Source: Bacillota bacterium (GTDB lineage: Bacteria; Bacillota; Clostridia; Tissierellales; MES13). Taken from it: a stretch of 64,000 nt of DNA. The notes under the pieces were generated by a model. It saw nothing but the letters and a program-made list of their open reading frames with translations, did not search any database and had not been told where the DNA came from. The first letter of the stretch is position 1; each line of letters opens with the position of its first letter. Positions 921 to 19,483 of this stretch are shown here, in pieces. The DNA is taken from positions 1,065 to 65,064 of the forward strand of contig VEND01000090.1 in NCBI GenBank assembly GCA_009711765.1, read 5' to 3'. The position numbers and the translations under genes were made by a program.

Positions 921-947
921 AAAAGCAGCCAATAATGGCTGCTTTCT
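921..947. terminator. Bidirectional hairpin between convergent corA and chemoreceptor genes
   Basis: AGCAGCC-aataat-GGCTGCT stem-loop (924..943) flanked by A-run and T-rich sequence. Confidence 0.7.
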
Positions 948-3006: not shown

Positions 3007-4428
3007 TTGAATGATATATTTTATATAAGAGTTTTTAATAAAAGAAATAAAAAGGTATCTAGAGTACCTATTGAATATATAGTAACAATGGCTGTAGCAG
3101 CCCAGGCTCCTATTAAATTTCATGAAGAATTTTTAAAAGTGCAATCAATTATAGCTAGAACAATCCTTATTAAAAAGATAAAAGCCCTAGGGGGAAAAGG
3201 ATGCACTAAATATGATAGATGCGATATATGTGATGAAGGACACTGTATAAATATGGCCAGTGAAAAGTCACTAAAAGAAAAGTGGAAAGAAGACTATAAT
3301 AAAAATATGGAAATTATAAAAAGGGCAGTAAAATCCACTGAGGATTTAATTATAACTATGGATAATAAACCAATAGATGCAAGGTTTCATAATAGTTGTG
3401 GTGGTTCTACTGAAAATGCTGAGAATGTATTAGGTAATAAAGTATTATATTTAAGAAAGGTTTTATGTGATAATTGTGTGGATTCCCCTGATTGGGATAA
3501 AGAGAAGGTAATAAATATAAAAGATCTACAAGAGAAGTTAGGAGTTAAATTTCCTAAGTTAAATTACAAATTAGATGTAGATATCAAAGGTTTTATAGAA
3601 GATATAAAAAGGGATGAGCAAGGTAGAATCCAAAGTATGAAAATAGGTGATAAAGTTTTTAAAGGTATAGAGATAATGGATATTTTAAATCTTAAATCCA
3701 CAAAATTTAGTATGTCCCCTTTAACTATTAAAGTTAAATCTAGAGGAAGGGGAGATGGCTTAGGTTTATGTCAATGTGGGGCTAATGAAATGGCTAAAGA
3801 AGGCTTTTTATATGAGGATATAATAAATTATTACTATACAGGGGTTGAAATTAAAAAGGTTGAAAAGCCATGCATAAATAAGCCACTTCAGGGTAAGATA
3901 TTTATATTAGACCCAGGACATGGAGGAAGCGTTACAACCGATAATGTTGGAGTTAATGGTTTAAGAGAAAAGGATGTTGTACTTAAAATATGTAAGTTAC
4001 TGAAAAAATCATTAACTAAATTAGGAGCGACTATACATCTAACCCGGGATAGTGATATATACATTCCATTAAATAAAAGAGTTAATCTCGTAAATGATAT
4101 TAGGCCTGATTTTTTATTATCTATTCATCTTAACTACTTTCCTAATAGTTCCATAAAGGGTTGTGAGATTTATCATTTTAAAAATGATACTGACAGTTTT
4201 GCCCTAGGAAAATTTATAATAAACAATATAAAGGATTTAGATATTATAGCTAAGGGAGTTAGAAGTGCAGAATTTTTTATGCTCCGAGAATGCGGGGTAA
4301 GTAGTCTTCATATTGAGGTTGATTATTTAAGTAATCCTTTAGTGGAAGAAAAATTAAGAAGTGATGATTATTTAACTAAGATAACAAGTAAAATAACTGA
4401 AGGAATCCTAGAATTTTACGAATATTAA
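3007..4428 (+). CDS. SpoIID/LytB-like domain fused to N-acetylmuramoyl-L-alanine amidase (Amidase_3)
   Basis: TTG start after TAAGGAGG. SpoIID-type block: KVQSIIARTI...GHC...DARFHNSCGGSTENAENV. C-terminal Amidase_3 block: ILDPGHGG...REKDVVL...LLSIHLN...GCEIYH. Confidence 0.8.
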   Translation: MNDIFYIRVFNKRNKKVSRVPIEYIVTMAVAAQAPIKFHEEFLKVQSIIARTILIKKIKALGGKGCTKYDRCDICDEGHCINMASEKSLKEKWKEDYNKNMEIIKRAVKSTEDLIITMDNKPIDARFHNSCGGSTENAENVLGNKVLYLRKVLCDNCVDSPDWDKEKVINIKDLQEKLGVKFPKLNYKLDVDIKGFIEDIKRDEQGRIQSMKIGDKVFKGIEIMDILNLKSTKFSMSPLTIKVKSRGRGDGLGLCQCGANEMAKEGFLYEDIINYYYTGVEIKKVEKPCINKPLQGKIFILDPGHGGSVTTDNVGVNGLREKDVVLKICKLLKKSLTKLGATIHLTRDSDIYIPLNKRVNLVNDIRPDFLLSIHLNYFPNSSIKGCEIYHFKNDTDSFALGKFIINNIKDLDIIAKGVRSAEFFMLRECGVSSLHIEVDYLSNPLVEEKLRSDDYLTKITSKITEGILEFYEY

Positions 4429-4583: not shown

Positions 4584-4850
4584 TTGAATCCAAAGAACAC
4601 TCTTGAAAAAATCAAGGAAAATGTTGAGAGCTATGTGGGTGAAAAAGTTAGACTTAAAGCTAATAAAGGTAGAAAGAAGACCACAATAAGAGAAGGGGTT
4701 TTAGAAAATGCTTACCCTAGTATCTTTGTAGTAAAAATCGAGGGAGGATATAATTCGGTAAGAAGAGTATCCTACAGTTATTCAGATATCTTAACAGAAA
4801 CAGTAGAAGTTACTGTATGCAACGAAGAAACAAAGATTCAAATAAGCTAA
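4584..4850 (+). CDS. veg: Veg (biofilm/sporulation-associated small protein)
   Basis: 88 aa with TTG start after GAAGGTG. Close match to B. subtilis Veg core (RL.LKAN.GR.K...G.L...YPS.FV......RVSYSY.DILTETVE). Confidence 0.92.
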   Translation: MNPKNTLEKIKENVESYVGEKVRLKANKGRKKTTIREGVLENAYPSIFVVKIEGGYNSVRRVSYSYSDILTETVEVTVCNEETKIQIS

Positions 4851-4860
4851 TTCTAGCATA

Positions 4861-4895
4861 AATGAACTGCCCTAATAGGGCAGTTCATTTTTTTG
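4861..4895 (+). terminator. Rho-independent terminator of veg
   Basis: AATGAACTGCCCT-aat-AGGGCAGTTCATT perfect 13-bp stem followed by a T-run. Confidence 0.9.
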
Positions 4896-4987
4896 ATATA
4901 CTACTAATTATTACAAATAAACTAATCTTAAAGAATAGGTTAAAGTCTGATATAATTAGATTATACTTAATACGAGGGGGACTTTCT

Positions 4988-5815
4988 TTGAAAAAACTAA
5001 TGATATTACTTTTTATATTAACATTTCTTTTCTCTGGATGCGCTAAAAGTAAACCAAACAAGCCAGAGGATGTAAAAGCAGATGAAAATATAGATGAAAA
5101 TAATGAAGTTAAAGACGATAAAGATAAAAAGGAAAAAAAGGAAGAAAAGATATATGAAGGTGAAGCCCTAGATACATTAGATAAGGATGGAATAATAGAA
5201 GTCTATAGTGAAAGGGTAGAAAATGTAAGGGATAATGAAACTAAGGAAAAAGCAATATATAAGTTAAAAGATTTTGAAAAAGTAAAACTACTAGAAACAC
5301 TACCCTATGGATGGTTTTTAGTTGAACTTAAGGATGGAACTAAAGGATATGTGGATTCAAGATATATAAGAACAAAGGAAATTCCGCCCCATGATTTTAA
5401 TGTAAAGGATAAAGGATATACCCTAATATTTACCCATGAAGATCAAACCCTTAAGATATATAAAGATGGAAAACTTATAAAAGAAACCATAGGTTCAAGT
5501 GGTCTTTGGGATCATTTCACTCCTAGGGGAATATTTAGAGTTCAGGATAAAATTAAGCTTTATGGTAAACTTAGACCAAGTAGAGGAAAGTGGTTTTATA
5601 CGCCTAGGATAAAACAAGGCGGTAAATACTGGGTAAGATTCAGTGGAGTTTATTTATTTCATTCAGTACCCTTTACTGAGGAGGGTAAGTTAATTAAAAA
5701 AGAAGCTCAAAAACTTGGACAACCTGCAAGTCATGGTTGTATTAGACTTCCTGTTGAGGATGCTAAATATATATATGAAAATATAAAACCAGGAGCATTG
5801 GTTTTAATATATTAA
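4988..5815 (+). CDS. L,D-transpeptidase (YkuD domain) lipoprotein with SH3-like domain
   Basis: Listed ORF 4862 begins inside the veg terminator. The likely start is TTG 4988 (or ATG 5000) after GAGGGGGA. Lipobox LFSGC. YkuD catalytic block is GQPASHGCIRLP. Confidence 0.85.
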   Translation: MKKLMILLFILTFLFSGCAKSKPNKPEDVKADENIDENNEVKDDKDKKEKKEEKIYEGEALDTLDKDGIIEVYSERVENVRDNETKEKAIYKLKDFEKVKLLETLPYGWFLVELKDGTKGYVDSRYIRTKEIPPHDFNVKDKGYTLIFTHEDQTLKIYKDGKLIKETIGSSGLWDHFTPRGIFRVQDKIKLYGKLRPSRGKWFYTPRIKQGGKYWVRFSGVYLFHSVPFTEEGKLIKKEAQKLGQPASHGCIRLPVEDAKYIYENIKPGALVLIY

Positions 5816-6147
5816 CAAATTAGGTAATAGACAGTTAATAACTGTTTAAATAGATAATTAAATAATAAAAAATAAAAACAGTCTTAGTTCTATAAAATTT
5901 AGAACTAAGGCTGCTTTTATTTTTTTGTAGTTGCTTGTTTATTAAAGTAAAATTTTTTAAAAAATAAATAGACAAGCAAACATGTTTTGTAATTAGCGAA
6001 TATATATTTAAAAAGAAATAGAAATTAATGTATAGAACAAGAAATCAGTGGAAATAATTAACTATGAATATAAATTAAAGGGAGACAAGGAAATACATTC
6101 CATACATGGGCACCTGGAATGTAGGGAGTCAATGGTGCAACCGACCC
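5747..6147 (+). repeat. Copy A of duplicated segment (ldt 3' end + intergenic + structured leader)
   Basis: Aligns by eye with 10539..10856. Copy A carries about 90 extra nt around the ldt terminator. Confidence 0.85.
5876..5927 (+). terminator. Rho-independent terminator of the L,D-transpeptidase gene
   Basis: CAGTCTTAGTTCTA...TAGAACTAAGGCTG 14-bp stem (one G-U) followed by TTTTATTTTTTT. Confidence 0.8.
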
Positions 6148-6178
6148 GAGGCCTAGAAAGATTTAGGTTGTATTTTTA
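6078..6178 (+). promoter_or_regulatory. c-di-GMP-II (GEMM-II)-like riboswitch, copy A, leader of sipW
   Basis: Ordered blocks GGAAAUAC, AUGGGCACC and GGUGCAACCGACC, as I recall them from the C. acetobutylicum c-di-GMP-II aptamer (..UGGGCAC..GUGCAACCGACC..). Stem ACAUUCCA/UGGAAUGU. Weak hairpin 6150..6169 plus U-run lies before the sipW RBS. Confidence 0.68.
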
Positions 6179-6198
6179 TGTTAAAAAAGGGGGAGCAC

Positions 6199-6747
6199 AT
6201 GAAAAAAGTGTTTAAATGGCTAAGTAATATCATACTTGGAATTTTAATTATTTTAGTTTTATTTTCTGTATTTTCTATGTTTCAAAGTAGAAAAAATCCA
6301 GATAAAGTACAATCAATATTTGGGTATAAACCAATGTCAGTTTTAACTGGAAGTATGAGACCAAAGCTTCAACCTGGGGATATGATAGTAGCTAAGGATA
6401 TACTTCCAAAAGAAGTTAAATTAAAAGATATCATAACTTTTAAAATAGGTAGTAATACTTTAGTTACCCATAGAGTTGTAGATATTGTTACTAAAGATAA
6501 TAAACTATATTTTAAAACTAAAGGTGATGCAAATAATGTGAAAGACCAAGATTTAGTATCATCAGACCAACTTATAGGAGTTTTAGCTTTTAATATACCT
6601 AAAGGCGGATATATAGCTAATTTTATAAGAAGTCCTAAAGGTTTTTTATTATTAATTATAGTGCCAATAATTCTCCTTTTAGGAGGGGAATTAAAAAGCA
6701 TATTATCAGATGTGGATGAATGCGATAACAAAGTCAAAAAATTCTAA
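6199..6747 (+). CDS. sipW: Signal peptidase I, SipW (archaeal/ER) type
   Basis: ATG 6199 after AAGGGGGAG. N-terminal TM, then LTGSMRPKLQPGDMIV (Ser box), VTHRVVD (His box) and TKGDANNVKD, plus a C-terminal TM as in B. subtilis SipW. Confidence 0.88.
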   Translation: MKKVFKWLSNIILGILIILVLFSVFSMFQSRKNPDKVQSIFGYKPMSVLTGSMRPKLQPGDMIVAKDILPKEVKLKDIITFKIGSNTLVTHRVVDIVTKDNKLYFKTKGDANNVKDQDLVSSDQLIGVLAFNIPKGGYIANFIRSPKGFLLLIIVPIILLLGGELKSILSDVDECDNKVKKF

Positions 6748-6844
6748 TGATAATATGTAATATAAAAACAAAATAATTAACATAGTTTAAGGTTTACTAG
6801 GGGATAAAAGATTACTTTAGGAGGTGACTTGTAACTAAAGAGAA

Positions 6845-6885
6845 AAAAATGGGCATCTGTGAGAGAGATAACCCATTTTTAAAAA
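6845..6885 (+). terminator. Hairpin plus T-run between sipW and first TasA-like gene (possible attenuator or terminator)
   Basis: AAAAATGGG (6845..6853) pairs with CCCATTTTT (6872..6880), with an inner ATCT/AGAT extension. Confidence 0.45.
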
Positions 6886-6964: not shown

Positions 6965-7924
6965 ATGAAAAAGAAAGTATTATTAAGTGTTTTATTGGTA
7001 GGTTTATTAGCCTTTGGTGCAGGAATGGGAACTTTAGCTTATTTTCAAAGTCAATTTAAAAGTGTAGGTTCAGTTATTCAAGCTGCTGAATGGGATATTG
7101 AGATGGATGATTTAATTGAAAATACGAATGGCACAGTTACAAGTGAATTTGACGTACCTTATTTTGCACCAGGTATGAGTAATGAAATGTCGTTATTTAT
7201 TAGAAGTGGGGCTACAAATGTAGATAGAAAGATTACAGTGAAAGTTGAACCTAAGGGTGATTTATTTACAAATATTAACTATCCATTTATTTTTAATGTA
7301 AATCATAGTAATGGACCAGGCGCTCCAACTTTAGTAGAAGATAATAAAGTTTATACCTATGAGTTCTATAGAACAAAAGAAGAAATTATAGGTACCGAAT
7401 ATATTTCTGTAGAGTATGAATGGCCATTTGATAGTTCTCCAGCAGTTGACAAAAGTTTAGAAGGGTTAGCAGGTACAATGGATGTCACAGTAACAGTTAC
7501 TCAAGTTAAGCCAGAAGATATGCCAGCTAGTTATACACAACTTTCAGGAGATGCAAGAGTTAATGCACCAGTTGATGGAGTAAAAAGAAATTGGTCACCT
7601 TTCCAAGGTAAAATAGATGAAAATAATGTACCTATTGAAATGAAAATTGAGGATCCAAATCTTGGTACTATAGAATTTGAATTAGAATATAATAAAGCTG
7701 TTAATGAATATAATTTAGCTAAATTTGAAGCTAATACTCCTGTAGGTCAAAATTATTTAGACAAAATTGTTCATCTTAGATTTATGCCTGATAACGAAAC
7801 ACCTGGACCACAAGTAAACCTTAGAAATGGATTTTCTTTAGAAGGTATTGATATAACTTCAGCAACACATTTTTACTTTTGTGATGTAAGCGGAAATAAT
7901 CAAAAGATTGAGATAGACAAATAA
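6965..7924 (+). CDS. TasA/camelysin-superfamily secreted protein with extra C-terminal domain
   Basis: SipW-cognate-style signal (LLAFGAGMGTLAYFQSQ). PG strand FAPGMSNEMSLFIRSG. C-terminal strand of the fold is LAGTMDVTVTVTQ at about aa 170-185. About 130 aa of unassigned domain follow. Confidence 0.75.
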   Translation: MKKKVLLSVLLVGLLAFGAGMGTLAYFQSQFKSVGSVIQAAEWDIEMDDLIENTNGTVTSEFDVPYFAPGMSNEMSLFIRSGATNVDRKITVKVEPKGDLFTNINYPFIFNVNHSNGPGAPTLVEDNKVYTYEFYRTKEEIIGTEYISVEYEWPFDSSPAVDKSLEGLAGTMDVTVTVTQVKPEDMPASYTQLSGDARVNAPVDGVKRNWSPFQGKIDENNVPIEMKIEDPNLGTIEFELEYNKAVNEYNLAKFEANTPVGQNYLDKIVHLRFMPDNETPGPQVNLRNGFSLEGIDITSATHFYFCDVSGNNQKIEIDK

Positions 7925-7930
7925 ACAATG

Positions 7931-7970
7931 AAACAAACAGGTGAGTAGTTATACTCATCTGTTTGTATAT
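7931..7970 (+). terminator. Hairpin after TasA-like gene (weak terminator)
   Basis: ACAAACAGGTGAGTA / TACTCATCTGTTTGT 15-bp stem (one G-U). No strong T-run follows. Confidence 0.4.
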
Positions 7971-8101
7971 AACTAGACACAGTACCTTAATAATAAACTT
8001 TGTAATAGTTTTATGAAATTAATAAGGCTATAAAAATATTATAATTTTATTAATTTTATAGAAATTTTCAATTTAAATTCTTGTGAGTAAAGGAGATGGA
8101 A

Positions 8102-9229
8102 ATGGTGAAAAAGACTTATTATTTTCTGGTTATAATAGCAATAATAATTGTTATATTTTTATTACCCAAAAATATGTTTACAGAAGATAATATTCCAACA
8201 ATATTAATTGGTAATAATGACATAGAAGTTGAACCTATATTTAAAAGTAAAGGAATAGGTAGTAGTGGGCCTTGGTACCCTGGATATTCAGCTGAGAATA
8301 CACTAAAAATATTAAATAATACTAATTCTAAAGTGAAGGTAAATAATTTAGGAATAGATATATCCTTATTTAGAAATGATATAAAGTTAGAAACTGACAA
8401 TAAAGATGTTATGGATTATTTAGATAATATGTTAATAAAAATAGATTATAGAAATCCTTTAACGAGAACATTTAAGGGAAATATTTTTGAAGGTACATTT
8501 AAAGAATTTTTAAATGGAGTAGATACAAATTTAGTATTAGGAAAGAAAGATAGTATAAATTTAATTTATACTATAAAAATGGATGAAAAAGCAGAGTCTA
8601 ATATAGCAGGAATAGTTGGAAAAACAGATTTCACGGTTAATATACAAGGTGATAATAAAACTAGTACTACTAAAAGAAAAAAAGAAGAAAAATATGATGA
8701 TATAGATAATCACTGGGCCCATGATTGTATAAAAACCTTACTGAAACATGAAATTATAAAGGGGTATCCTGATGGGACTATAAAACCAAATAATTATATT
8801 ACAAGGGCAGAGACGGCTGTTTTAGTAGGAAATGCATTAGATTTAGAAGAAAATAATAAATTCTTTTCAGGATATTTTGATATTTTACCACTTTGGGCAA
8901 GGGGTCATATAATCTCAACTACTGAAGCAGATGTTTTTAAAGGTTATCCAGGAAGATTATTTAAAGCTTATAAAAATATATCAAGAGAAGAAATGACTTC
9001 AGTACTTATAAGGGCATTTATAGAAAAAGAAAAAACAGATATAGATATTAAATTTGTAGATAAGAAAGATATTAGTGATTGGGCAATTGAAGATATAAAA
9101 ATAGCAGTAGACGAAAAAGTGATTGAAGGTTATCCAGATAATACATTCAAGCCTAAAGAAAATATAACAAGGGCAGAGGCATTTACAATCATTTGTAAGT
9201 TATTAGGATATCATGATGAACATAAATAA
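8102..9229 (+). CDS. TasA-like N-terminal domain fused to three SLH (S-layer homology) cell-wall anchoring repeats
   Basis: ATG 8102 is 6 nt after GGAG. N-terminal TM. PIFKSKGIGSSGPWYPGYSAENTLKILNNTNS...MDEKAESNIAGIVGKTDFTVNIQ. SLH repeats: HWAHDCIKTLLKHEIIKGYPDGT.KP...ITRAE, three times. Paralog of 18309..19448. Confidence 0.8.
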   Translation: MVKKTYYFLVIIAIIIVIFLLPKNMFTEDNIPTILIGNNDIEVEPIFKSKGIGSSGPWYPGYSAENTLKILNNTNSKVKVNNLGIDISLFRNDIKLETDNKDVMDYLDNMLIKIDYRNPLTRTFKGNIFEGTFKEFLNGVDTNLVLGKKDSINLIYTIKMDEKAESNIAGIVGKTDFTVNIQGDNKTSTTKRKKEEKYDDIDNHWAHDCIKTLLKHEIIKGYPDGTIKPNNYITRAETAVLVGNALDLEENNKFFSGYFDILPLWARGHIISTTEADVFKGYPGRLFKAYKNISREEMTSVLIRAFIEKEKTDIDIKFVDKKDISDWAIEDIKIAVDEKVIEGYPDNTFKPKENITRAEAFTIICKLLGYHDEHK

Positions 9230-9249
9230 GGATTTAGGAGGTGAATATA

Positions 9250-10476
9250 GTGAAAATGAATAAGAAAAAGATTGTAATAAAATCAGTTACTTTTTTAGTA
9301 TCTGGATTTATAATTAGTACAGCCTTTTTAATGAATTATGACACTTTTTCCTTCTACACTGAAAAGCTAACAGGGGAGGTAGGTGTTTCAGCTGCTAATG
9401 AAAAAGATATTATTAAAGATATAAATTTAGAAACTGATAGGTTTGGTAATACAGAGACCTTAGTATTACAAAAAGGAGAAGGATATGAAGGGGTACCAGT
9501 TATATATTTTTCAATTGATGGAGAGATAGAGGATTATATATTAAATATAAATCCTTTAGTTTTAAATTCATCTCAATCTAAAATATATATTAAAGCGAAA
9601 TCTAATATAACTTTAGAACAGTTTATTAAATTATTGGCAAGCGATAAAGATAAAATAACAGGGACAATAAATATAAGGTCTTTAAATGATTTTGTATATA
9701 ATAAAGACTATACATTAGAATTCAGTAAAAACTATCTTATTGATAAATTTAAATCTCAAATTCCGACAGAAGATAGAAAAGTTATAGAAATTGCAGAAAA
9801 AATATTACAAAGTAATCAGATAAGTTTAAGTGAAGAAAGATTAGTGGATTTTGCTATTTATTCTTTTAAAGAAAATGAAATGAATTCTATCAAGATAGTT
9901 AAAAAACTACTACAACATATTTTTTCTAAAAATAGTACTGAGGTTGATTCGTTAAAGGTTAGTAAAGAACATAGTTTATCCTTACAAAAAGAGCAGATAG
10001 AGTTGATAGATATAATACAGCCTAAATTTGTAGATTATATGAAGGATTTAGAAGGGACAGTTAAAAATTTAAATAAAGTAATAGATGATAATATATTAAA
10101 AATCGAAAAACTTAATGGTGAGAAAGGGATATTAGAAAGAAAAGCAAAAGAATTAGAAGAAACAAAAGAAGTTAAAAATCAAGAAATTGAAAAGCTAAAT
10201 AAAAAAATAGAAGAGATTAATAATGATATTGAAGTACTAAAGGATAATAATAATAAATTAGACAAAAGAATATCATATCTTAAAGAAGATAAAAATGATT
10301 TAGAAAAATCTATTAGAAAATTAAGAAAAGAAAAAGAATCATTGTTAAAGAAAAATGAAAGATTAATAAAGGAAAATAAAGAGCTTAAAAAAGAGATAGA
10401 AGAACTTAAAGATAAGCTTTCAACAGATAACGATGACAACACTACAGTCTCAGGGGATGTTTATGGAAGTAATTAG
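9250..10476 (+). CDS. Membrane-anchored or secreted protein with long C-terminal coiled coil
   Basis: GTG 9250 or ATG 9256 after AGGAGGTG. N-terminal hydrophobic segment is followed by TFSFYTEK. The last ~150 aa are a heptad-like K/E/L/N-rich coiled coil. Confidence 0.6.
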   Translation: MKMNKKKIVIKSVTFLVSGFIISTAFLMNYDTFSFYTEKLTGEVGVSAANEKDIIKDINLETDRFGNTETLVLQKGEGYEGVPVIYFSIDGEIEDYILNINPLVLNSSQSKIYIKAKSNITLEQFIKLLASDKDKITGTINIRSLNDFVYNKDYTLEFSKNYLIDKFKSQIPTEDRKVIEIAEKILQSNQISLSEERLVDFAIYSFKENEMNSIKIVKKLLQHIFSKNSTEVDSLKVSKEHSLSLQKEQIELIDIIQPKFVDYMKDLEGTVKNLNKVIDDNILKIEKLNGEKGILERKAKELEETKEVKNQEIEKLNKKIEEINNDIEVLKDNNNKLDKRISYLKEDKNDLEKSIRKLRKEKESLLKKNERLIKENKELKKEIEELKDKLSTDNDDNTTVSGDVYGSN

Positions 10477-10538
10477 TGAAAATATTAAAAACAAAAGGGA
10501 GTTTTGCATGAATACAATATCAAAGGAAATTTTACAAA

Positions 10539-10608
10539 CTGCAAAGTGTTGAGGATGTTAAACATATATGAAAATATAAAACTTGGATCATTTGTTTTAA
10601 TATATTAA
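10539..10608 (+). pseudogene. Dead 3' fragment of an L,D-transpeptidase gene (duplicate of 5747..5815)
   Basis: Translates LQSVEDVKHI, compared with LPVEDAKYIY in the intact gene. A 2-nt deletion shifts the frame. The equivalent stop context TATATTAA is retained. Confidence 0.75.
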
Positions 10609-10856
10609 TAAATTAGGTAATAGACAGTTAAAACTGTTTGTTACCTTTTTATTTTTTTGTATAAATTAAAAGACAAGCATACATATTTTTTTTATTAGTG
10701 AATATATATTTATAAGGATATAAAAGGAGTAAATTTATATATATAAAACGAAATGTTTTGGAAATAGTTAGAGACAAATGATTATAAAAGGGAGACTAGG
10801 AAATACATTCCATATATGGGCACCTGGAATGTATGGAGTCAATGGTACAACCGATC
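10539..10856 (+). repeat. Copy B of duplicated segment (ldt remnant + intergenic + structured leader)
   Basis: Collinear with 5747..6147. The leader core 10791..10856 matches 6081..6146 at 61 of 66 positions (manual alignment). Confidence 0.85.
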
Positions 10857-10886
10857 TTTATTTTAGTAAAAGGTCTTTTTATTTAT
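10788..10886 (+). promoter_or_regulatory. c-di-GMP-II-like riboswitch, copy B, with intrinsic terminator; leader of two-component system
   Basis: Same blocks as copy A, except GGUACAACCGAUC replaces GGUGCAACCGACC. Terminator stem GATCTTT (10853..10859) / AAAGGTC (10869..10875) plus TTTTTATTTATT. The 5' half of that stem overlaps the aptamer 3' end. Confidence 0.65.
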
Positions 10887-10906
10887 TATACGGGGGGGAG
10901 TAATTT

Positions 10907-12574
10907 TTGAACAGTATTTATAGGATAAAATCTTTTTTAAAAAAACAGTCAGAAGAAGTAAAAATAATGTTTTTTTATAGATACATATCTTTAATAGTTA
11001 CTTCATTTTTTTATTTTGTTGGAGATTCCCATCATAATATTCAAAGAAGACTATTTATAATAATATGTCTTAGTATATCGTCTATTATACTTAGTTACTT
11101 ATATATAATAAATGAAAAAAACCCTTCGAAAATAAAATTACTAGTGTTAATAGAAACTTTAGGTAATTGCTCAATTTTAATACCTTCTGGTGGGCTTAAT
11201 AGTCCCTATGTTTGGTATTCAATAAATACTATATTAATGACTTCAATGGCTTTAAAAGGAAAATATTCTTGGATTAATACATTTATATATTTAAGTGCTT
11301 CTACTTGGATATCCTATCTAGTTACTGATTTTAATAATTATAGCTTTATAGATTTAATAGAGGAAGAATCAAATATAATACTTAGTTTAATTTTGATTAC
11401 TTCAATAATAAGATTACTGTCAAAATACATAAAAAAGATGGAAATAAAAGGTAAGAAGGTTAAAGAAGCCAACAGAAAATTAAAAGAATCAATGACTCAT
11501 ATAATGGAACTTTATCAGGCAGTACATTTATTTACAACACAAAATAGTAAAGATAGTCTGATAGAAATTATAATTAATCATACTAAAAAAATAACAAAGG
11601 CAAATACAGTTATATTTTATAATATATCAAATGAAGAAGATAAATTAATCTGTAAAGGTAGTAAGTTATCTAATGATATAAAGGAAAAATTAAAAATAAA
11701 AATATCAGATTTAAGGAATAATATTCTAGATTCACAAATAACAATAGAATTAGGAATAGAAGGAGAAAATTTCGTTTTAATTGCTTTAAAGTCAAATTAT
11801 AAGACATATGGGATATTAGGGATTAAGTTAAATTATAAAGAAAATATAGAACAATTACAGTTTTTATCTGAGTTAAGCTCTATTGTATTAGAGAAATTCG
11901 AGCTTGAACAGGTTAATGAAAAACTATTGATTACTGAAGAACAAAATAGAATAGCAAATGAAATTCACGATAGTGTCCTGCAGAGACTATTTAGCATATC
12001 ATGTGGAATATTTGCTTTAATTAAAAAAGAAAAAATGACATCTGATGAGATGAATAATGAATTAAATATGATAAGAAGTTCCATAAACAGTACTATGAAG
12101 GAATTAAGATCAACAATATATGGACTGAGCTGGAAAAAAGAAGGTTTAGATTATTTTGTAGATAATATTTCAAATTATATTAATGAAGTTAAAAAATTAA
12201 ATAATGTAGATATAAGTTTCAATATAAAAGGAGATCATGAATTATTATCATCACTACAAAAGAAGTCAGTACATAGAATAATTTGTGAAGGTATAGGAAA
12301 TGCAGTTAATCATGGAAAGGCTAATAATATTGAAGTAAAGCTTAATATTAAAAAATATATAACTTTACTTAAAATAGCTGATAATGGTAAAGGATTTGAT
12401 TTAAATAAGGTAAGAAATAAAAAGGATGTAGGATTAGGTATTAAAAATATTCATTATTTAACTCAGTTACTTAATGGTGAAATTAATTTTAATACTAGAA
12501 ATGAAAAAGGAACTAAAATTAAAATCACCATTCCAAATAATATTAATAATTTTAAAAAGGAGGAAGTAATATGA
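10907..12574 (+). CDS. Sensor histidine kinase, HisKA_3 (NarX/LiaS/DegS-like) family, polytopic N-terminus plus GAF-like middle region
   Basis: TTG start after GGGGGGAG. About 5 TM helices. H-box EEQNRIANEIHDSVLQRLF. HATPase_c blocks NAVNHGKA, DNGKGF and GLGIKNI. Confidence 0.85.
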   Translation: MNSIYRIKSFLKKQSEEVKIMFFYRYISLIVTSFFYFVGDSHHNIQRRLFIIICLSISSIILSYLYIINEKNPSKIKLLVLIETLGNCSILIPSGGLNSPYVWYSINTILMTSMALKGKYSWINTFIYLSASTWISYLVTDFNNYSFIDLIEEESNIILSLILITSIIRLLSKYIKKMEIKGKKVKEANRKLKESMTHIMELYQAVHLFTTQNSKDSLIEIIINHTKKITKANTVIFYNISNEEDKLICKGSKLSNDIKEKLKIKISDLRNNILDSQITIELGIEGENFVLIALKSNYKTYGILGIKLNYKENIEQLQFLSELSSIVLEKFELEQVNEKLLITEEQNRIANEIHDSVLQRLFSISCGIFALIKKEKMTSDEMNNELNMIRSSINSTMKELRSTIYGLSWKKEGLDYFVDNISNYINEVKKLNNVDISFNIKGDHELLSSLQKKSVHRIICEGIGNAVNHGKANNIEVKLNIKKYITLLKIADNGKGFDLNKVRNKKDVGLGIKNIHYLTQLLNGEINFNTRNEKGTKIKITIPNNINNFKKEEVI

Positions 12575-13191
12575 AGATACTTGTAGTTGATGACCATCCA
12601 TTAGTAAGAAAGGGGATATCATCAACCCTCTCCTTTGAAGATGATATTGAAAAAGTACATGAAGCATCTAGTGTAGAAGAAGCAATGAAGGGATTACGTA
12701 GATATAATCCTGAAATTGCTATGATCGATTTAAAACTTGGTAAAGAAGATGGTCTAGACATTGTAAAAAAAGCTAAGAAAGAGAGATTATTTACTAAATA
12801 CATAATATTAACTTCATCTTCTAATAGGGATGACTTTTTAAGGGCACAAAGGGTAGGAGTAGATGGATACGTACTAAAGGAAGCTTTTACAGAGGATGTA
12901 ATATATGCATTTCATGTAGTTAGAAGGGGTAAAAAGTTTTTTGATCAAGAAATTTTACAATATCAGATGGATGAATCTAATGATGATAAATATGATGAAT
13001 TAACACCTAGAGAAAGGGATGTCTTAGTTGAGTTAGGGAAAGGTTTAAGTAACATACAAATAGCAAGAAAATTATATATATCAGAAAATACAGTTAAAAA
13101 ACATGTTAGTAATATATTTTCAAAATTATGTTTAAGTCATAGAACAGAGGCAGCACTTTATATTAATAATTCAGTTAAATTTGGAACTTAA
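12571..13191 (+). CDS. Response regulator, NarL/LuxR family
   Basis: 4-nt overlap with the kinase gene. REC domain (KILVVDDHPLVRKG, MIDLKLG). C-terminal LuxR HTH (LTPRERDVL..L.KGLSNIQIARKLYISENTVKKHVSNIF). Confidence 0.92.
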   Translation: MKILVVDDHPLVRKGISSTLSFEDDIEKVHEASSVEEAMKGLRRYNPEIAMIDLKLGKEDGLDIVKKAKKERLFTKYIILTSSSNRDDFLRAQRVGVDGYVLKEAFTEDVIYAFHVVRRGKKFFDQEILQYQMDESNDDKYDELTPRERDVLVELGKGLSNIQIARKLYISENTVKKHVSNIFSKLCLSHRTEAALYINNSVKFGT

Positions 13192-13223
13192 ATAAATACT
13201 CTTAAAGTAAAAGAGGTGTTTAA

Positions 13224-13721
13224 ATGGTAAGAAAAAGAAAGAAAAAAATATTTAAAGGTAAGAAATTAATGTTAATTAGCTCTATTGCAATGTTAAATTT
13301 TGTAGGAGTAAGTTATGCATCTTGGAATGATAACATAGAAATATTTACTTCTCTTTCCACTGGGGAAATGAATATATCCTTTATAGATAGTCATAATATT
13401 CAAAAGGTAAGGGGAAAAGGAACTTTAGAAGTAAAACATATCGGTGAAAATACAATAGAAATTAGTGGAGAGGTAGATAAAGATTATAAAGCATTTTTAC
13501 ATTACGGTGTAGTAAATAAAGGTAGTATCCCTGTTAAATTTAGAGGACATCCATCCCATGATAAAGCTGGATTGAAACTACGATTAAATAATCAATCTAA
13601 AATGATAGGACCTAAGGAAGTCATTTATAAAAATGGGAATCCTAAATTACATATTGAAGCAAGGGAAGTAGGTACTTGTAATTTTACAATAAAATTACCC
13701 TTTAAACAATGGAATCGTTAG
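13224..13721 (+). CDS. Minimal TasA-superfamily secreted protein (165 aa)
   Basis: Signal plus N-terminal strand FVGVSYASWNDNIEIFTSLSTGEMNISF, compared with TasA WAAFNDIKSKDATFASGTLDLS. Also VVNKGSIPVKF. C-terminal NFTIKLPFKQWN, compared with TasA FSFEATQWN. Confidence 0.7.
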   Translation: MVRKRKKKIFKGKKLMLISSIAMLNFVGVSYASWNDNIEIFTSLSTGEMNISFIDSHNIQKVRGKGTLEVKHIGENTIEISGEVDKDYKAFLHYGVVNKGSIPVKFRGHPSHDKAGLKLRLNNQSKMIGPKEVIYKNGNPKLHIEAREVGTCNFTIKLPFKQWNR

Positions 13722-13768
13722 CTAGATAGAGTCTACTTTTTAATATAGGTTTTAATGGAGGTATAAAT

Positions 13769-14005
13769 GTGAAAAAAGGATCGGTTATTTTATTAAGTAC
13801 AATAGGTGGATTTATCTTAATGTCAGGGGGATATGGCCTTTGGAGAGATAGTTTAACTATTAAAGGTAATATAACAGTTATTGAAGAGGTATATCCTGAA
13901 GAGACAATGGATGCTTTATCCTTTGAACAACCTAATTTAGACTTAGAAAATGTTACAGATATAGAGGATGAAAAAACGGTTACTGAAGATGTGTACAGTG
14001 AATAA
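13769..14005 (+). CDS. 78-aa secreted mini-protein: signal peptide, TasA-type N-terminal strand and acidic tail only
   Basis: GTG start after GGAGG. LSTIGGFILMSGGYGLWRDSLTIKGNITV resembles GAGYAYWSETLTINNTVKTG of the downstream subunits. The rest is D/E-rich, and there is no globular domain. Confidence 0.55.
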   Translation: MKKGSVILLSTIGGFILMSGGYGLWRDSLTIKGNITVIEEVYPEETMDALSFEQPNLDLENVTDIEDEKTVTEDVYSE

Positions 14006-14036
14006 ATAATAAAGAAAAGTAAATGGGGGACAAAGG

Positions 14037-15248
14037 ATGATAAATAATTATTTACCAACAAAAGCATCTAAAAAAAGATGCTTTTTACTTATCGGCTTAT
14101 TACTTAGTTTATATTTGGTTGAAAACTCACCCATAACTAAATATCTTGATAATCAAATTTTAAATTACATTTTAAAACCTATGTTATGGGGAAGTATGGC
14201 TTTAATAGTATGGATATTTCCTAAAATCAGATCTAAGGGTTTATTAAAATTAAAGGGACTTATAAATATATGGGCTTTTAATTTTTCTATAATTTTTATT
14301 GTTATATCAGTAATAGCAGGAGTTATTGATGGCTTAGGGAAAAGTCCTTACGATCACTCTTTAAGGGGTATGTTACTTAATATTTTACTAGTTGGTTCTA
14401 TGTTAATTGGTAGGGAGTTTGTAAGAAGTTATATAGTAAATAGTTTAACTAAGGAAGAAAATTATGTTGTATTTGTATTAGTTGCTTTATTTATGACTTT
14501 TATTAGTATATCTTTAAATAGGTATTTTAAAATAGATGGATATGTAAGTGGAGTTAAATTTACAGCCCAATACTTTGCTCCTGAATTTTCAAAAAATCTT
14601 TTTGCATCCTATTTAGTATTTTTAGGAGGGCCAATAGCTTCAATAATTTATTTAGGAGTATTAGAAGCATTTCATTGGCTTTCACCTATACTTCCGGATT
14701 TAAAATGGATTATAACTGCACTAATAGGTGTTTTATGTCCTATTTTTTCACTCCTTGCAATGCAAAGTATATATCTAAATCAATCTAAGGAAATAAAAGT
14801 GAGTGATAAAGAGGAAGATAGTCCTATAAGTTGGATGATAACTAGTATAGTATCCATAGGAATCATATGGTTTGCAGTGGGTGTATTTCCAGTTTATCCT
14901 TCTGTTATAGCAACAGGTAGTATGGAGCCTATGATAAAACCTGGGGATGTAATATTAGTTAAAAAAATAGTAGATATAGAAGGTGTTAAAAAGTTAGATA
15001 TAGACGATGTGATTCAGTTTAAACGAGGTAATATACTAATATCCCATCGAATAAAAGAAATAGTAGAGAAAGAAAAAGAGGGAATTCAATATAAAACAAA
15101 GGGAGATAATAACTCAGTTTCAGACAGTAAGTTAGTAAAGCCAGAACAGATAAAGGGAAAGATTGTAAAGGTTGTACCAAAAATAGGATGGCCTACATTA
15201 CTTATTAAAAGTAAAGACGATATTCCATTAGATCAAATAGAATTTTAA
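14037..15248 (+). CDS. Polytopic membrane domain (~280 aa) fused to SipW-type signal peptidase I
   Basis: The N-terminus has about 7-8 predicted TM helices of unassigned family. C-terminal peptidase blocks: ATGSMEPMIKPGDVILV, ISHRIKEIV, YKTKGDNNSVSD. Confidence 0.8.
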   Translation: MINNYLPTKASKKRCFLLIGLLLSLYLVENSPITKYLDNQILNYILKPMLWGSMALIVWIFPKIRSKGLLKLKGLINIWAFNFSIIFIVISVIAGVIDGLGKSPYDHSLRGMLLNILLVGSMLIGREFVRSYIVNSLTKEENYVVFVLVALFMTFISISLNRYFKIDGYVSGVKFTAQYFAPEFSKNLFASYLVFLGGPIASIIYLGVLEAFHWLSPILPDLKWIITALIGVLCPIFSLLAMQSIYLNQSKEIKVSDKEEDSPISWMITSIVSIGIIWFAVGVFPVYPSVIATGSMEPMIKPGDVILVKKIVDIEGVKKLDIDDVIQFKRGNILISHRIKEIVEKEKEGIQYKTKGDNNSVSDSKLVKPEQIKGKIVKVVPKIGWPTLLIKSKDDIPLDQIEF

Positions 15249-15280
15249 AAAAATCACAGGATACAGTCCTGTGATTTTTC
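15248..15280 (+). terminator. Rho-independent terminator after the SipW fusion gene
   Basis: AAATCACAGGA-tacag-TCCTGTGATTT stem followed by a T-run. Confidence 0.85.
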
Positions 15281-15453
15281 TATGTAGATAAATATTAGTT
15301 CAGCGACGTAATACTAAAGTAGTATATCTATAACTAATAAGTATTAGTAAATATACATCTAAAATAGGATAAATAACTATCCTTACGTACGATGTTAAAT
15401 ATATGAATAAATACTATAATTAGTATTGTAAGAAATATGAAAGCTAGCTAATA

Positions 15454-15475
15454 TTACTTAATGGCCATTAAGTAA
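15454..15475. promoter_or_regulatory. Perfect 22-bp palindrome upstream of first BsaA/TasA-like subunit gene (candidate operator)
   Basis: TTACTTAATGG|CCATTAAGTAA, ending 46 nt before ATG 15522. Confidence 0.4.
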
Positions 15476-15521
15476 AACCTATCAAATTTATTAAATTAAA
15501 AAAATAAGGGAGAGATTTTTA

Positions 15522-16124
15522 ATGAAGAGAACTAAATTTTTAGCATTAGCATTAGTAGCAGCAATTATGGTAATGGGTGCTGGATATGCATATTGGTCAG
15601 AAACTATAACAATTAGCAATACAGTTAAAACTGGGGAATTAGATTTTACATTTAATGACGCAGCAATAGTAAGTGTTGATGAGTATATGGATTATGATGC
15701 TACTTCTACTTGTGGTGTAAATAGTGATGATAATAATCAAGTTGATATTGTATTAGAAGATATGTACCCAGGAGCAGAAGCCACAGTAAAATTTGATTTA
15801 GAAAACACAGGTACTATGAAAGCTAAACTAAAGAATTTTGCTATACCAACAGCACAAGAGAATGAATATGTTCATGTAACTTCAGTTAAATTAGGTGATG
15901 CCGAATTACTTACTGAAACTATAAATATTGCTGATTTAGACTCAACGTTAGAAGCTCAGAATATTACTATTGAACCAGATGCTGAGCAATATTTTGAGAT
16001 TACTTTCGAAATAGATCCAAATGCTGATGAAGATCAAGTAGCTGAAAATCTTGGAGATAATGATGATGCTATTGAGTTTACTTTAACTGCAGATGGACTT
16101 CAATATAACGATGATGAAAACTAA
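15522..16124 (+). CDS. BsaA/TasA-family SipW-dependent matrix or fibre subunit (acidic, 200 aa)
   Basis: Signal plus strand VMGAGYAYWSETITISNTVKTGELDF. MYPGAEATVKFDLENTGT. C-terminal AIEFTLTADGLQ. Strong RBS GGGAGAG. Confidence 0.8.
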   Translation: MKRTKFLALALVAAIMVMGAGYAYWSETITISNTVKTGELDFTFNDAAIVSVDEYMDYDATSTCGVNSDDNNQVDIVLEDMYPGAEATVKFDLENTGTMKAKLKNFAIPTAQENEYVHVTSVKLGDAELLTETINIADLDSTLEAQNITIEPDAEQYFEITFEIDPNADEDQVAENLGDNDDAIEFTLTADGLQYNDDEN

Positions 16125-16135
16125 GATTATTAAAA

Positions 16136-16163
16136 TTTATGCAGGGTAAGAACCCTGCATAAA
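16136..16163 (+). terminator. Hairpin after subunit gene 1
   Basis: ATGCAGGG-taagaa-CCCTGCAT. The trailing T-run is weak. Confidence 0.5.
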
Positions 16164-16259
16164 TTATCTTTAAAAATTCATTTAAAATAAAGTAATTATT
16201 GTTATGATAGTTTGAGAAAAATTATATTAGAAACACATTAAAAAATGAGGGGTGTTTTC

Positions 16260-16922
16260 ATGAAAAAATCAAGAGTGCTGGCCCTAACTTTAGTAGTTGC
16301 GGTTGTGTTAATGGGAGCTGGATATGCATATTGGAGTGAAACTTTAACAATTAATAATACAGTAAAAACAGGTGAATTGGATTTACAATTTGACTATCCT
16401 ACTTATGATGGTGACTATGATGATAAATATCCATATTCAGATGATTATATGAAAGTTGATTCTTATTTTGAAGATGAGAAACATAAATTAGTTTTTGAGT
16501 TAGAAGATGTTTATCCAGGTGGCGGCGGTTGGTTAAATTTTAAAATTAAAAATACGGGAACTGTACCAGCTAAGCTTACAAGTATAACTCCTTCAATCCT
16601 TTCAGATGAAGCTAATATGAAAGATGAATTTAATTATGCACTTCATTCAATAAAATTATATTATCCTATAAAGATTGGACAATGGGAATGGACATATGTA
16701 ATACCTGTAGATTTTCCTATGTATGCTACTACATTTAATGATTTTGTAGGAAAATTACAATCAAAACTTAGTCAATATACTTTAGAACCAGGTGCATACT
16801 TTGTAATAAATGCTGAAAGTGGAGGTTATGATATACAATTACCAAGTACAGTAACAAGTGATGACTTTGAAGATGAAACGTTCAAATTTGATTTATTATT
16901 AAACTTTGATCAAGCGCATTAA
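16260..16922 (+). CDS. BsaA/TasA-family SipW-dependent matrix or fibre subunit (paralog, ~220 aa)
   Basis: ATG 16260 after GAGGGGTG. LMGAGYAYWSETLTINNTVKTGELDLQF. VYPGGGGWLNFKIKNTGT. C-terminal TFKFDLLLNFDQA. Confidence 0.8.
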   Translation: MKKSRVLALTLVVAVVLMGAGYAYWSETLTINNTVKTGELDLQFDYPTYDGDYDDKYPYSDDYMKVDSYFEDEKHKLVFELEDVYPGGGGWLNFKIKNTGTVPAKLTSITPSILSDEANMKDEFNYALHSIKLYYPIKIGQWEWTYVIPVDFPMYATTFNDFVGKLQSKLSQYTLEPGAYFVINAESGGYDIQLPSTVTSDDFEDETFKFDLLLNFDQAH

Positions 16923-16962
16923 TACTAAAAAAGCTAGGAATATAGTCCTAGCTTTTTTAGTA
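16923..16962 (+). terminator. Rho-independent terminator after subunit gene 2
   Basis: TACTAAAAAAGCTAGGA / TCCTAGCTTTTTTAGTA 17-bp stem including a T-run. Confidence 0.85.
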
Positions 16963-17039
16963 TTAATGTACTATTCTAAAAAGGTAATTCATAAATTATG
17001 TAGAATATGTAATTAATACAAATTGGTGGGAGTGATGTC

Positions 17040-18146
17040 ATGAAGTTTAATATAAATAAGAACATCAGAAAAATTATAATGATAGCTAGTATAATTCTGA
17101 TTATGATTACCTCTTTTTTCTTATATCGTGAGTATAAAATTAAAGAATATGAAGAAAAGAAAATAAGTTTATATAGTTATAATAATAAATCTATTATTAA
17201 TTACGAAGTTTTTCTTAAACCTAATGTTTTGTATGAGACCGAAAGTATAGGAGAAAGGCACATATATATTACAGAGTTTGTTGATTATCTTAATACGATA
17301 TTTACTTATGATTTTAAAGGGGAAAAAGAAGCAGAAATTAAAGGAAATTATGAAATTGTAGCTGTAGTTGAAGGATATACAGGCGAAGGTGAAACATATA
17401 AAAGTATATGGAAGAAGGCTTTTACTTTAGTATCTAAAAAGAAATTCAATGTTAAAGATAAAAAGGTTTCTATAAATCAAGAAGTTCCAATAAAATTTCA
17501 TGAATATAATAATTTCGCTAAAAAGGTTATTGAAGACTCAAAAATTTATTCTAGTGTTAAATTAAATGTGTTTATGGATGTTAATCTAAAAGCTAATACT
17601 GACAAAGGACTGATAGAAGAAAAAATAACACCTGCTATAGAGATACCTCTTAATACAAATTATTTTGAAATTGCTGGAGAGCTATCTCAAGATAAAGAAG
17701 GAAGTATAGAAAAAACAGTTAAGGTTGAATTGCCTGTGGATAGAAAAAAAGTTATTTCATATTGTGTACTTATAGGTATATTTTTAATAGTATTATTATT
17801 TGTATTGATATTTACTAAAGGGATTTTAGATATAAATCCTTTAGAAAAGAAATTGAAAAAAATATTTAAAAGCCATGGAGATAGATTAGTAGCATTAAAG
17901 GATGAAGTTATATATGATTATGAAAAAATAAATACTGTAAATTCTATAGATGATTTAGTAAGAATTTCTGATGAGATAGGGAAACCTATAATGTATAAGT
18001 ATAGTGAAAATCTTTTAGATATAACTAAATTTTATGTTTATGATGAGACTACTATATATGTTTTAAATTTAGATAAACTTATAGGAAAAAATGAAGTAGA
18101 GGAAACTGTAAAAAATATGATTTCAAATGATAGTGCTGATAGTTAG
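17040..18146 (+). CDS. Bitopic membrane protein of unknown function (possibly DUF5305-like)
   Basis: TM1 at about aa 12-28, a ~210-aa beta-rich outside domain, TM2 at about aa 240-258, and a ~110-aa cytoplasmic tail. The family assignment is from memory only. Confidence 0.6.
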   Translation: MKFNINKNIRKIIMIASIILIMITSFFLYREYKIKEYEEKKISLYSYNNKSIINYEVFLKPNVLYETESIGERHIYITEFVDYLNTIFTYDFKGEKEAEIKGNYEIVAVVEGYTGEGETYKSIWKKAFTLVSKKKFNVKDKKVSINQEVPIKFHEYNNFAKKVIEDSKIYSSVKLNVFMDVNLKANTDKGLIEEKITPAIEIPLNTNYFEIAGELSQDKEGSIEKTVKVELPVDRKKVISYCVLIGIFLIVLLFVLIFTKGILDINPLEKKLKKIFKSHGDRLVALKDEVIYDYEKINTVNSIDDLVRISDEIGKPIMYKYSENLLDITKFYVYDETTIYVLNLDKLIGKNEVEETVKNMISNDSADS

Positions 18147-18308
18147 TTGATAAAAACTACTCAAAAGTAGTATAAGAAATTAATCTAAAGTATTATATAA
18201 AAATATAAAATATTAAATAAGATAATAGTAAGTATTTAAAAAAATATACATATGCAAAGGATAAGTAATTTAAGTTTTAAGAGTATTGAAATCATAGAGG
18301 TGAATTTT

Positions 18309-19448: not shown

Positions 19449-19482
19449 ATTAGCGGCCAAGTACTTGGCCGCTAATTTAATG
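19443..19482. terminator. Bidirectional terminator between SLH gene and NhaC-family gene
   Basis: Perfect long palindrome CATTAAATTAGCGGCCAAGTACTTGGCCGCTAATTTAATG. Confidence 0.85.
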
Positions 19483-19483
19483 T

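Follow-up and report, generated by a model that had tools for sequence, protein, structure and literature searches.

A duplicated c-di-GMP-II riboswitch leader carrying the dead 3′ end of an L,D-transpeptidase gene in a SipW/TasA-type matrix locus

Riboswitches of the c-di-GMP-II class (c-di-GMP, cyclic dimeric guanosine monophosphate) precede pilA1 and adhesin genes of Clostridioides difficile as ON switches, and in the classical ON design the 5′ arm of the terminator is the 3′ strand of the aptamer stem P1. Homology-facilitated illegitimate recombination, as seen in natural-transformation studies, has one homologous anchor and one illegitimate end. To our knowledge, direct sequence footprints of riboswitch leaders moving or being overwritten have rarely been pointed out. 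The regulator BsaR of the Clostridium perfringens matrix operon sipW-bsaABCRSD binds the sipW promoter (PMC7395162), and multiple or tandem riboswitch arrangements are well known (reviewed in PMC9481103), including the triple-tandem c-di-GMP-I riboswitch Bc3-5 (PMC4759541). We analyzed a 64-kb stretch of a metagenome-assembled genome (MAG) of a Bacillota bacterium (28% G+C; locus tags FH753_099xx; read set SRR9198949), hereafter the window, in which two matrix sub-loci each lie behind a c-di-GMP-II riboswitch leader. The leader of the second sub-locus (copy B) is a paralogous copy of that of the first (copy A) and includes the dead 3′ end of the L,D-transpeptidase gene (ldt) adjoining copy A.

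The region of both sub-loci is a SipW/TasA-type matrix locus. The signal peptidase model TIGR02228 (cut-off 51.85) was matched at 6199-6747 (113.5 bits) and 14037-15248 (64.1 bits), and the SipW-dependent signal peptide model TIGR04088 (cut-off 19) at 15522-16124 (20.7 bits) and 16260-16922 (22.8 bits). The BsaA-family model TIGR04090 gave weak sub-threshold matches only, and the protein encoded at 6965-7924 had no family match in Pfam or NCBIfam. The first gene behind copy A is sipW, while that behind copy B encodes a sensor histidine kinase (HK), which together with its response regulator (RR) opens an HK-RR-SipW-TasA-like-DUF5305-SLH cassette running to 19448:

10907-13191, forward strand: HisKA_3 sensor kinase and NarL/LuxR-type response regulator genes (Pfam, NCBIfam and synteny)

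As in the C. perfringens operon, SipW, proteins with a SipW-dependent signal peptide, and a kinase/regulator pair are found in one cluster; the gene order is RS there and HK-RR here, and the two loci are likened by gene set. No riboswitch is described in that operon (PMC7395162), whereas the cluster in the window is split into two units with a terminator between them, each with a c-di-GMP-II leader in front. Both aptamers resemble the c-di-GMP-II class (RF01786) in exceeding its gathering score, in lying as 5′ leaders on the gene strand, and in having surface or biofilm genes downstream. The class is departed from in copy B by a substitution at an otherwise invariant G, and in copy A by an atypical expression platform. 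Copy B and most relatives appear to share the P1-strand terminator ON logic of the C. difficile switches, but the genes downstream in the window are a two-component system and a SipW/TasA-like matrix cassette. More than one aptamer of the same class occurs in one neighbourhood, as in tandem riboswitches; however, 4.7 kb, with four genes and a terminator, separate the window aptamers, which are leaders of separate units rather than a tandem sensor. True tandem c-di-GMP-II pairs were seen at the related loci L088 (1047-1133/1319-1402, before sipW) and L155 (4222-4304/4375-4458). The tract in the window is a new instance of known processes, and its aptamers are ordinary c-di-GMP-II members.

The duplication was identified by comparing the window with itself. 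In the self-BLASTN, 5752-5847 matched 10547-10639 (96 columns, 89.6% identity, E 7e-28) and, collinear with this segment, 5953-6144 matched 10655-10854 (205 columns, 78% identity, E 4e-37); no further copy of the tract, or of the palindromic terminator present only in copy A, was found in the 64-kb window. Copy B (10547-10854, ~310 nt) is thus a paralogous copy of copy A (5752-6144, ~390 nt) and sits 4.8 kb downstream of it. The original prediction had placed a segmental duplication at 5747..6147 and 10539..10856; the two collinear segments confirm it, with the collinearity as described and the true start (5752/10547) 5-8 nt further to the right. It had also named similarity confined to the aptamer as the outcome that would speak against a duplication, and the 96-column segment lies wholly outside the aptamer. 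Copy B is a composite of an ldt stump, a hairpin with a T-run, an AT-rich leader, and a c-di-GMP-II aptamer, and the ldt stump carried along with it is proof that the ~310-nt leader was copied as one unit. The parts of the two copies are as follows:

4862-5815, forward strand: intact L,D-transpeptidase gene (YkuD and SH3_3; Pfam YkuD, E 1e-18), the parent of the remnant
5752-5847, forward strand: left block of copy A, comprising the last 20 ldt codons and stop (5753-5815) and the hairpin (BLASTN)
5879-5926, forward strand: intrinsic terminator of ldt found only in copy A, stem 5879-5913 and T-tract (terminator scan and fold)
5966-6071, forward strand: leader of copy A, putative promoter region, with the blocks TAGACAAGCAAACAT (5969-5983) and TTAGCGAATATATATTTA (5993-6010) (alignment)
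6072-6155, forward strand: c-di-GMP-II aptamer A (Rfam RF01786, 61.9 bits, E 2e-11)
10547-10608, forward strand: dead 3′ end of ldt, 20 codons and stop (BLASTN, alignments and comparison with 4xxt)
10615-10658, forward strand: intrinsic terminator of copy B, 14-bp stem and T4AT7 (terminator scan and fold)
10659-10781, forward strand: leader of copy B with the blocks AAGACAAGCATACAT (10670-10684) and TTAGTGAATATATATTTA (10695-10712) (alignment)
10782-10865, forward strand: c-di-GMP-II aptamer B (Rfam RF01786, 68.8 bits)

A gapped global alignment of the two copies contained 31 substitutions and 14 indel events, and substitution density varied from 0.03 to 0.18 along the tract. Identity was 90-94% in the aptamer core (93.8%) and fell to the background of 44% directly after CAACCGA; the homology ends at ~6144-6146, at the 3′ end of the aptamer. 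The 3′ half of the leader was the most diverged part of the tract (substitution density 0.17-0.18), with 6 indel events clustering there. Copy B had T at 22 of the 31 differing sites and copy A at 2 of the 31 (binomial p 4e-5), and within the ldt stump, X to T in copy B accounts for five of six changes; this directional bias suggests that most changes occurred in copy B. The shared hairpin, the TTAG(C/T)GAATATATATTTA block (5993-6010 and 10695-10712), and the aptamer were each present in both copies, as had been proposed.

The ldt stump was compared with its parent gene. The YkuD match covers residues 193-316 of the 317-aa open reading frame (ORF) and profile positions 9-146 of 146, and the C-terminus of the protein aligns with PDB 4xxt_A through its last residue; the true ldt start is probably near 4988-5000. 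The left block of copy A begins one base ahead of a codon boundary in the 4862-5815 ORF. Against 5753-5815, the stump at 10548-10608 shows a 2-nt deletion in a (TA)n run, leading to a frameshift and an early TGA, together with six substitutions, yet it is identical in 56 of 64 columns and in register with the parent 3′ end and stop. Its frames read VEDVKHI* and then IYENIKLGSFVLIY, where the intact gene reads VEDAKYIYENIKPGALVLIY. The frameshifted remnant with retained stop context had thus been recognized correctly, its length being 20 rather than ~23 codons. It begins just past the SHGCIRLP motif of the parent and contains no catalytic motif; it is a YkuD L,D-transpeptidase pseudogene fragment without function. 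Two sites (A to V and Y to H) could be polarized with 4xxt, and at both copy A keeps the conserved residue while copy B is derived. Because it carries a piece of ldt, copy B descends from DNA that once adjoined ldt. No YkuD gene was found in the 10-kb flanks of 160 related loci, and the adjacency of ldt is therefore specific to this lineage, the stump not being an old shared feature.

The left edge of the stump bears on whether a longer piece of ldt was once present. Local alignment of 5600-5751 with 10477-10546 gave no significant similarity to the left of 5752/10547, with 181 of 1000 shuffles scoring as well, and a leftward extension of the stump was rejected on this basis. A short ORF lies across the edge:

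10508-10552, forward strand: 14-codon ORF (MNTISKEILQTAKC) with a strong Shine-Dalgarno (SD) sequence, GGGAG at 10497-10501 (read from sequence)

Its stop falls in the first bases of the ldt remnant, and the ORF may be what remains of a gene or leader truncated by the duplication. We considered whether ldt, terminator, leader, and aptamer had been duplicated whole, in either direction, and the redundant ldt later deleted down to its last 64 nt. Redundant duplicates are commonly lost by deletion; the orphan SD and ORF in the 70 nt that separate the stump from the coiled-coil stop point to something else having been truncated, and a collinear, non-significant trace of similarity joins 5706-5730 with 10519-10544. 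Such a history needs one extra event, and ldt similarity upstream of 10547 is without statistical support in the shuffling described above; we regard this history as quite unlikely.

The tract was checked against independently assembled Logan contigs of run SRR9198949. Contig L166 corresponds to 6967-10623 with 0 mismatches and spans the junction of the coiled-coil gene with the ldt remnant as well as the frameshift; contig L001 corresponds to 10817-19470 with 0 mismatches and spans the B-specific aptamer bases. The contigs break within the repeated tract, one stopping at 10623 and the other beginning at 10817, and by its length and similarity the repeat interrupts de Bruijn assemblies. The junction of copy B, its frameshift, and its specific aptamer bases are no artefact of MAG assembly, and the tract is real, given the divergence of ~10-30% between the copies and the presence of the junction and of the bases specific to copy B in two independent contigs. 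The search for an independent contig by exact look-up returned no record with the TasA-like protein and succeeded with the coiled-coil gene.

It is scarcely credible that the two leaders are independent riboswitch copies, alike through aptamer constraint, with the ldt-like stretch being an AT-rich coincidence or an assembly chimera. The other genomes with two aptamers (L025, L040, and L056) do show within-genome similarity limited to the aptamer ±20 nt, as this explanation would have it, but the extra ~235 nt of similarity beyond the aptamer were seen in the window pair only. The E-value of the non-aptamer segment, a match in register with the ldt frame and stop that continues into the same hairpin and T-tract, and independent contigs that reproduce the tract exactly all argue against it, and an assembler could neither collapse nor create diverged copies. 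An origin by chance or artefact was excluded on the BLASTN segment, the in-register alignment, and the contigs.

Past the stop codon, both copies read AGGTAATAGACAGTTAA(T)AACTGTTT; an ACAGT/ACTGT hairpin lies at 5830-5844 in copy A and 10624-10637 in copy B. The hairpin block of copy A folds with −8.0 kcal/mol (z −3.1). Next in copy A come ~62 A-only bases forming the terminator, the shared T-run, and ~31 further A-only bases, which agrees with the predicted ~90 extra nt including a strong ldt terminator, here found in two blocks (~5848-5909 and 5931-5961). The stem of this terminator (5879-5913) has 14 pairs (−24.0 kcal/mol, z −8.5), and its T-tract is common to copy B. In copy B, the six bases GTTACC replace the 62 A-only bases; these six and the first T of the T-run pair with AGGTAAT, and the ACAGT hairpin grows to a 14-bp stem at 10615-10646. 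This stem (−17.9 kcal/mol, z −5.4, with 0 of 200 shuffles as stable) has 4 G-C among its 14 pairs, a loop of 4, the tail TTTTATTTTT, and TTTTATTTTTTT directly after the stem. It was the sole forward-strand terminator call in 10400-11000 (1 found, 0.1 expected in shuffles).

Sub-locus 2 had been thought to inherit only a weak terminator (10624..10657); instead, the 14-bp stem with its T-run could credibly terminate transcription of the coiled-coil gene that ends upstream at 10476. As the copy B terminator is predicted not to be weak, read-through from sub-locus 1 would not be specially favored. Both matrix units would then be separately terminated and each gated by c-di-GMP, rather than forming one read-through operon. 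The ~31 further A-only bases form an inverted repeat with the TAGACAAGC block described below. This repeat, present only in copy A (5930-5943/5966-5981, GTTGCTTGTTTATT/AAATAGACAAGCAAAC, −12.8 kcal/mol), takes in the block, and its 5′ arm is missing from copy B.

Both window aptamers were full-length matches (1-84/84) to RF01786, above its gathering score of 53.5 bits. A covariance model built from four aptamers retrieved 48 related aptamers from the loci of relatives. Over these 50 aptamers, 92% of cells were paired, and 16 of 19 pairs showed double-sided changes, which was equaled by 0 of 500 shuffles; slid controls paired only 22-45%, with the alignment being model-fitted and thus leaning towards the structure. 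The loop GCACC is complementary to a conserved 3′ segment, GGUGCAACCG (pseudoknot/ligand pocket), which is intact in copy A. In copy B the segment is GGUACAACCG: position 10847 has changed from G to A (GGUGC to GGUAC), G being present in copy A and 42 of 42 relatives. Position 10855 has changed from C, found in 41 of 42 relatives, to U; both the A and the U were confirmed by the independent contig. The quality of P1 was tried as a clue to direction, since P1 of copy A seemed broken, and was discarded: most relatives have only 3-5 contiguous pairs, and copy A is mid-range.

Each aptamer leads into an expression platform of its own outside the shared tract, with a strong SD and the first gene within ~40 nt:

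6150-6201, forward strand: private platform A, hairpin and U-rich run, SD GGGGGAG (6189-6195), sipW ATG at 6199 (folds)
10853-10909, forward strand: private platform B, predicted terminator hairpin, U-tract, SD, HK start (fold and design of relatives)

Platform B comprises a hairpin (10853-10875), a U-tract (10876-10888), the SD GGGGGAG (10894-10900), and the HK start TTG at 10907. Its putative terminator, GAUCUUUAUUUUAGUAAAAGGUC followed by U5AU3, takes the P1 3′ strand (GAUCUUU...) as its 5′ arm and overlaps the last 13 nt of the aptamer. The same design was found by automated search in 34 of 42 relatives, where the terminator starts 9-14 nt ahead of the aptamer end with the P1 3′ strand as 5′ arm, and by eye in several of the remaining eight. 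Binding of c-di-GMP would hold P1, thereby blocking termination and allowing transcription of the kinase operon (ON switch), and the riboswitch leader would be the sole working part of copy B.

Platform A has a hairpin at 6150-6169 (8 bp) that begins after the P1 CCC, and it is therefore atypical and not of the ON-type terminator design. It resembles the terminator 3′ arm and U-tract of the relatives' platforms (score 29; null 19.6±2.5; 1/300). A specific likeness to the closest sipW leader (L086) was considered and rejected, as many platforms of the family scored equally and the best match was of the HK type. The 3′ strand of aptamer A, GUGCAACCGACCC, is complementary to GGGGGAGCAC in the SD region of sipW, and the corresponding fold (z −1.2) was no better than those of shuffles; hypothetically, pairing with the SD could place sipW under translational control in copy A.

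Two blocks of the leader, AGACAAGCAWACAT and TTAGYGAATATATATTTA, were well kept between the copies (13 of 14 and 17 of 18 positions conserved). In the 140 nt upstream of the aptamers of relatives, many kinase-type leaders (L010, L015, L050, L056 at its second aptamer, L044, L041, L066, L023, L074, and L012) share the architecture (T/C)GACAAG, ~7 nt, TT(T/G)(A/G)CAAA, exactly 21 nt, and TAnnAT. By analogy with BsaR on the sipW promoter, this may be an activator site overlapping a promoter, possibly for the NarL-type regulator of the operon. The window copies retain only TAGACAAGC / AAGACAAGC of it, at 5969-5977 and 10670-10678, and a manual fit of both copies to the TTnACA-21 nt-TAnnAT arrangement of the relatives failed. 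The TAGACAAGC motif recurs in the HK leaders of L010 and L050, not in the sipW leaders seen.

The kinase cassette is conserved in dozens of Clostridia, Tissierellia, and some Bacilli, where it consists of a HisKA_3 kinase, a NarL-type regulator, two small secreted proteins, a membrane-anchored SipW-type peptidase, TasA/BsaA-like proteins, DUF5305, and an SLH protein. Among the 73 loci with enough upstream DNA, 34, from many clostridial lineages, have a c-di-GMP-II aptamer ending 63-331 nt before the HK orthologue. Sub-locus 1 (SipW, TasA-like, SLH, and coiled-coil) is likewise a recurring module: it precedes the riboswitch-kinase unit in L010/L090, follows it in L023 and L025, and stands by itself in L086-L088. 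The three closest sipW relatives (L086, 56%; L087 and L088, 47%), like L025, have an aptamer directly before sipW. The c-di-GMP-II riboswitch before the HisKA_3/NarL/SipW/TasA-like/DUF5305/SLH cassette and before the sipW-tasA-SLH module is thus a conserved and apparently undescribed regulon link; our literature search found no paper joining c-di-GMP-II with sipW or TasA, which does not prove that the link is unknown.

These comparisons indicate that both leader positions had riboswitches before the duplication: an older kinase riboswitch is indicated by the 34 of 73 loci and by platform B, which lies outside the tract and has the design of the family, and an older sipW riboswitch by the aptamers directly before sipW in L025 and the three closest relatives. 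The duplication therefore wired no new gene set to c-di-GMP, and the proposal that the promoter and riboswitch cassette was copied to newly head sub-locus 2 does not hold. We consider it moderately probable that an older kinase leader was overwritten in its 5′ part by the ldt-adjacent leader. Both sub-loci would already have possessed their own c-di-GMP-II leaders, and non-reciprocal copying, by ectopic gene conversion or homology-facilitated illegitimate recombination, would have replaced the 5′ part of the kinase leader with a copy of the ldt-adjacent one, dragging along the last 64 nt of ldt. The right end would have been resolved within the homologous aptamers and the left end joined illegitimately inside ldt. 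The outcome would be two matrix sub-loci with one leader type and one aptamer type and no new regulatory link.

One homologous and one illegitimate end are proposed because the right end coincides with the end of the older aptamer homology, while the left end is arbitrary in ldt, an unrelated gene. In this the tract resembles homology-facilitated illegitimate recombination, the mechanism being inferred from the end points and no microhomology being evident at the left junction; as for ectopic gene conversion, donor and recipient are not assignable with certainty in the window. Since the tract ends exactly where the older aptamer homology ends, aptamers may be able to serve as anchors for recombination. 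Copy B is the degenerate, decaying partner, as judged by its frameshift, its derived residues, its changes at two otherwise invariant aptamer positions, and the T at 22 of 31 differing sites. In another lineage, L010/L090 show the same order of sub-locus 1, riboswitch, and HK.

Several observations weigh against the overwriting of a kinase leader as set out here, or against a working ON switch in copy B. The nearest outgroup aptamer is that of the HK-type locus L016 (85-88%), with sipW-type aptamers reaching at most 74%; together with the TAGACAAGC motif in the HK leaders of L010/L050, this weakly hints that the shared leader and aptamer are of kinase-leader rather than sipW-leader descent, which a simple one-step model from A to B does not explain. 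The uneven substitution density may point to a history in two layers. The direction of copying and the number of steps are presumptive, there being no genome closer than 55% HK identity. A search of genome contigs with the kinase for close relatives in a single- or double-copy state found none; a search of 5.8 billion proteins returned only the identical protein, the next match having 55-56% identity, and the TasA-like protein found a single distant match only. As no relative above 56% kinase identity was present in any collection searched, the history of the duplication cannot be polarized. As for function, the ON logic of copy B is read from sequence only, the stem of platform B is weak (−3.3 kcal/mol), partly owing to C to U at 10855, and the aptamer with A at 10847 in GGUGC may bind c-di-GMP poorly or be decaying. 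A sigma-70 search on the forward strand of both copies gave no match of at least 9 of 12.

The kinase-type hints would be accounted for in a single event if a locus of ldt, leader, aptamer, and kinase had been split by insertion of sub-locus 1, with its own platform, just after the aptamer, a target of ~390 nt from the ldt 3′ end to the aptamer being duplicated; copy B would then be in situ and copy A/platform A the new junction. This explanation also accounts for platform B being native to the kinase, and sub-locus 1 is a movable module, as its varied placement in L010/L090, L023, L025, and L086-L088 indicates. We nevertheless consider it unlikely. In none of 80 related loci does ldt adjoin the kinase leader, and duplicating a 390-nt target around a 4.4-kb insert would call for an uncommon mechanism, for instance unequal sister exchange or the Campbell-type integration of a circle with the homologous tract already on it. 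The order in L010/L090 suggests that the adjacency of sub-locus 1 and the riboswitch-HK unit predates the duplication, and the derived changes are found in copy B, not in copy A, though an in-situ copy could still decay. We retain the overwriting of the kinase leader by the ldt-adjacent one as the more probable history.

Aptamers of one genome were also alike elsewhere. In the window, L025, and L040, the nearest neighbour of each aptamer was its partner in the same genome; the pairs of L025 (9828-9904/19138-19214) and L040 (6775-6891/7569-7683) share 87% identity, with homology stopping ~20 nt outside. They suggest recurrent aptamer-limited homogenization or recent duplication in several lineages. 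A response-regulator gene lies between the L040 aptamers (6790-6873 and 7583-7666). In a broader and very doubtful reading, terminator-leader-aptamer modules would be repeatedly homogenized between linked matrix operons by aptamer-anchored recombination and the copies then tuned apart, giving a two-step c-di-GMP switch. Different c-di-GMP thresholds for the two sub-loci would follow from the mutated pseudoknot G, the weakened P1/terminator, and the T-biased decay of copy B.

The SLH-domain genes of the two sub-loci (8395-9230 and 18611-19453) are paralogous, with 68% nucleotide identity over 848 nt, and much older than the leader tract. Upstream of sub-locus 1, a homologue of the Veg "biofilm formation stimulator" (4584-4850) lies directly ahead of ldt, preceded by a SpoIID-amidase fusion (3007-4428) and an H-NOX (haem-NO-binding) methyl-accepting chemotaxis protein (947-2749, reverse strand). 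The end of sub-locus 2 is convergent with an NhaC-type Na+/H+ antiporter gene (19484-21037, reverse strand), with a perfect 44-nt palindrome (19441-19484) between them, and this gene is preceded by a lysine riboswitch (21138-21320, reverse strand, 116 bits).

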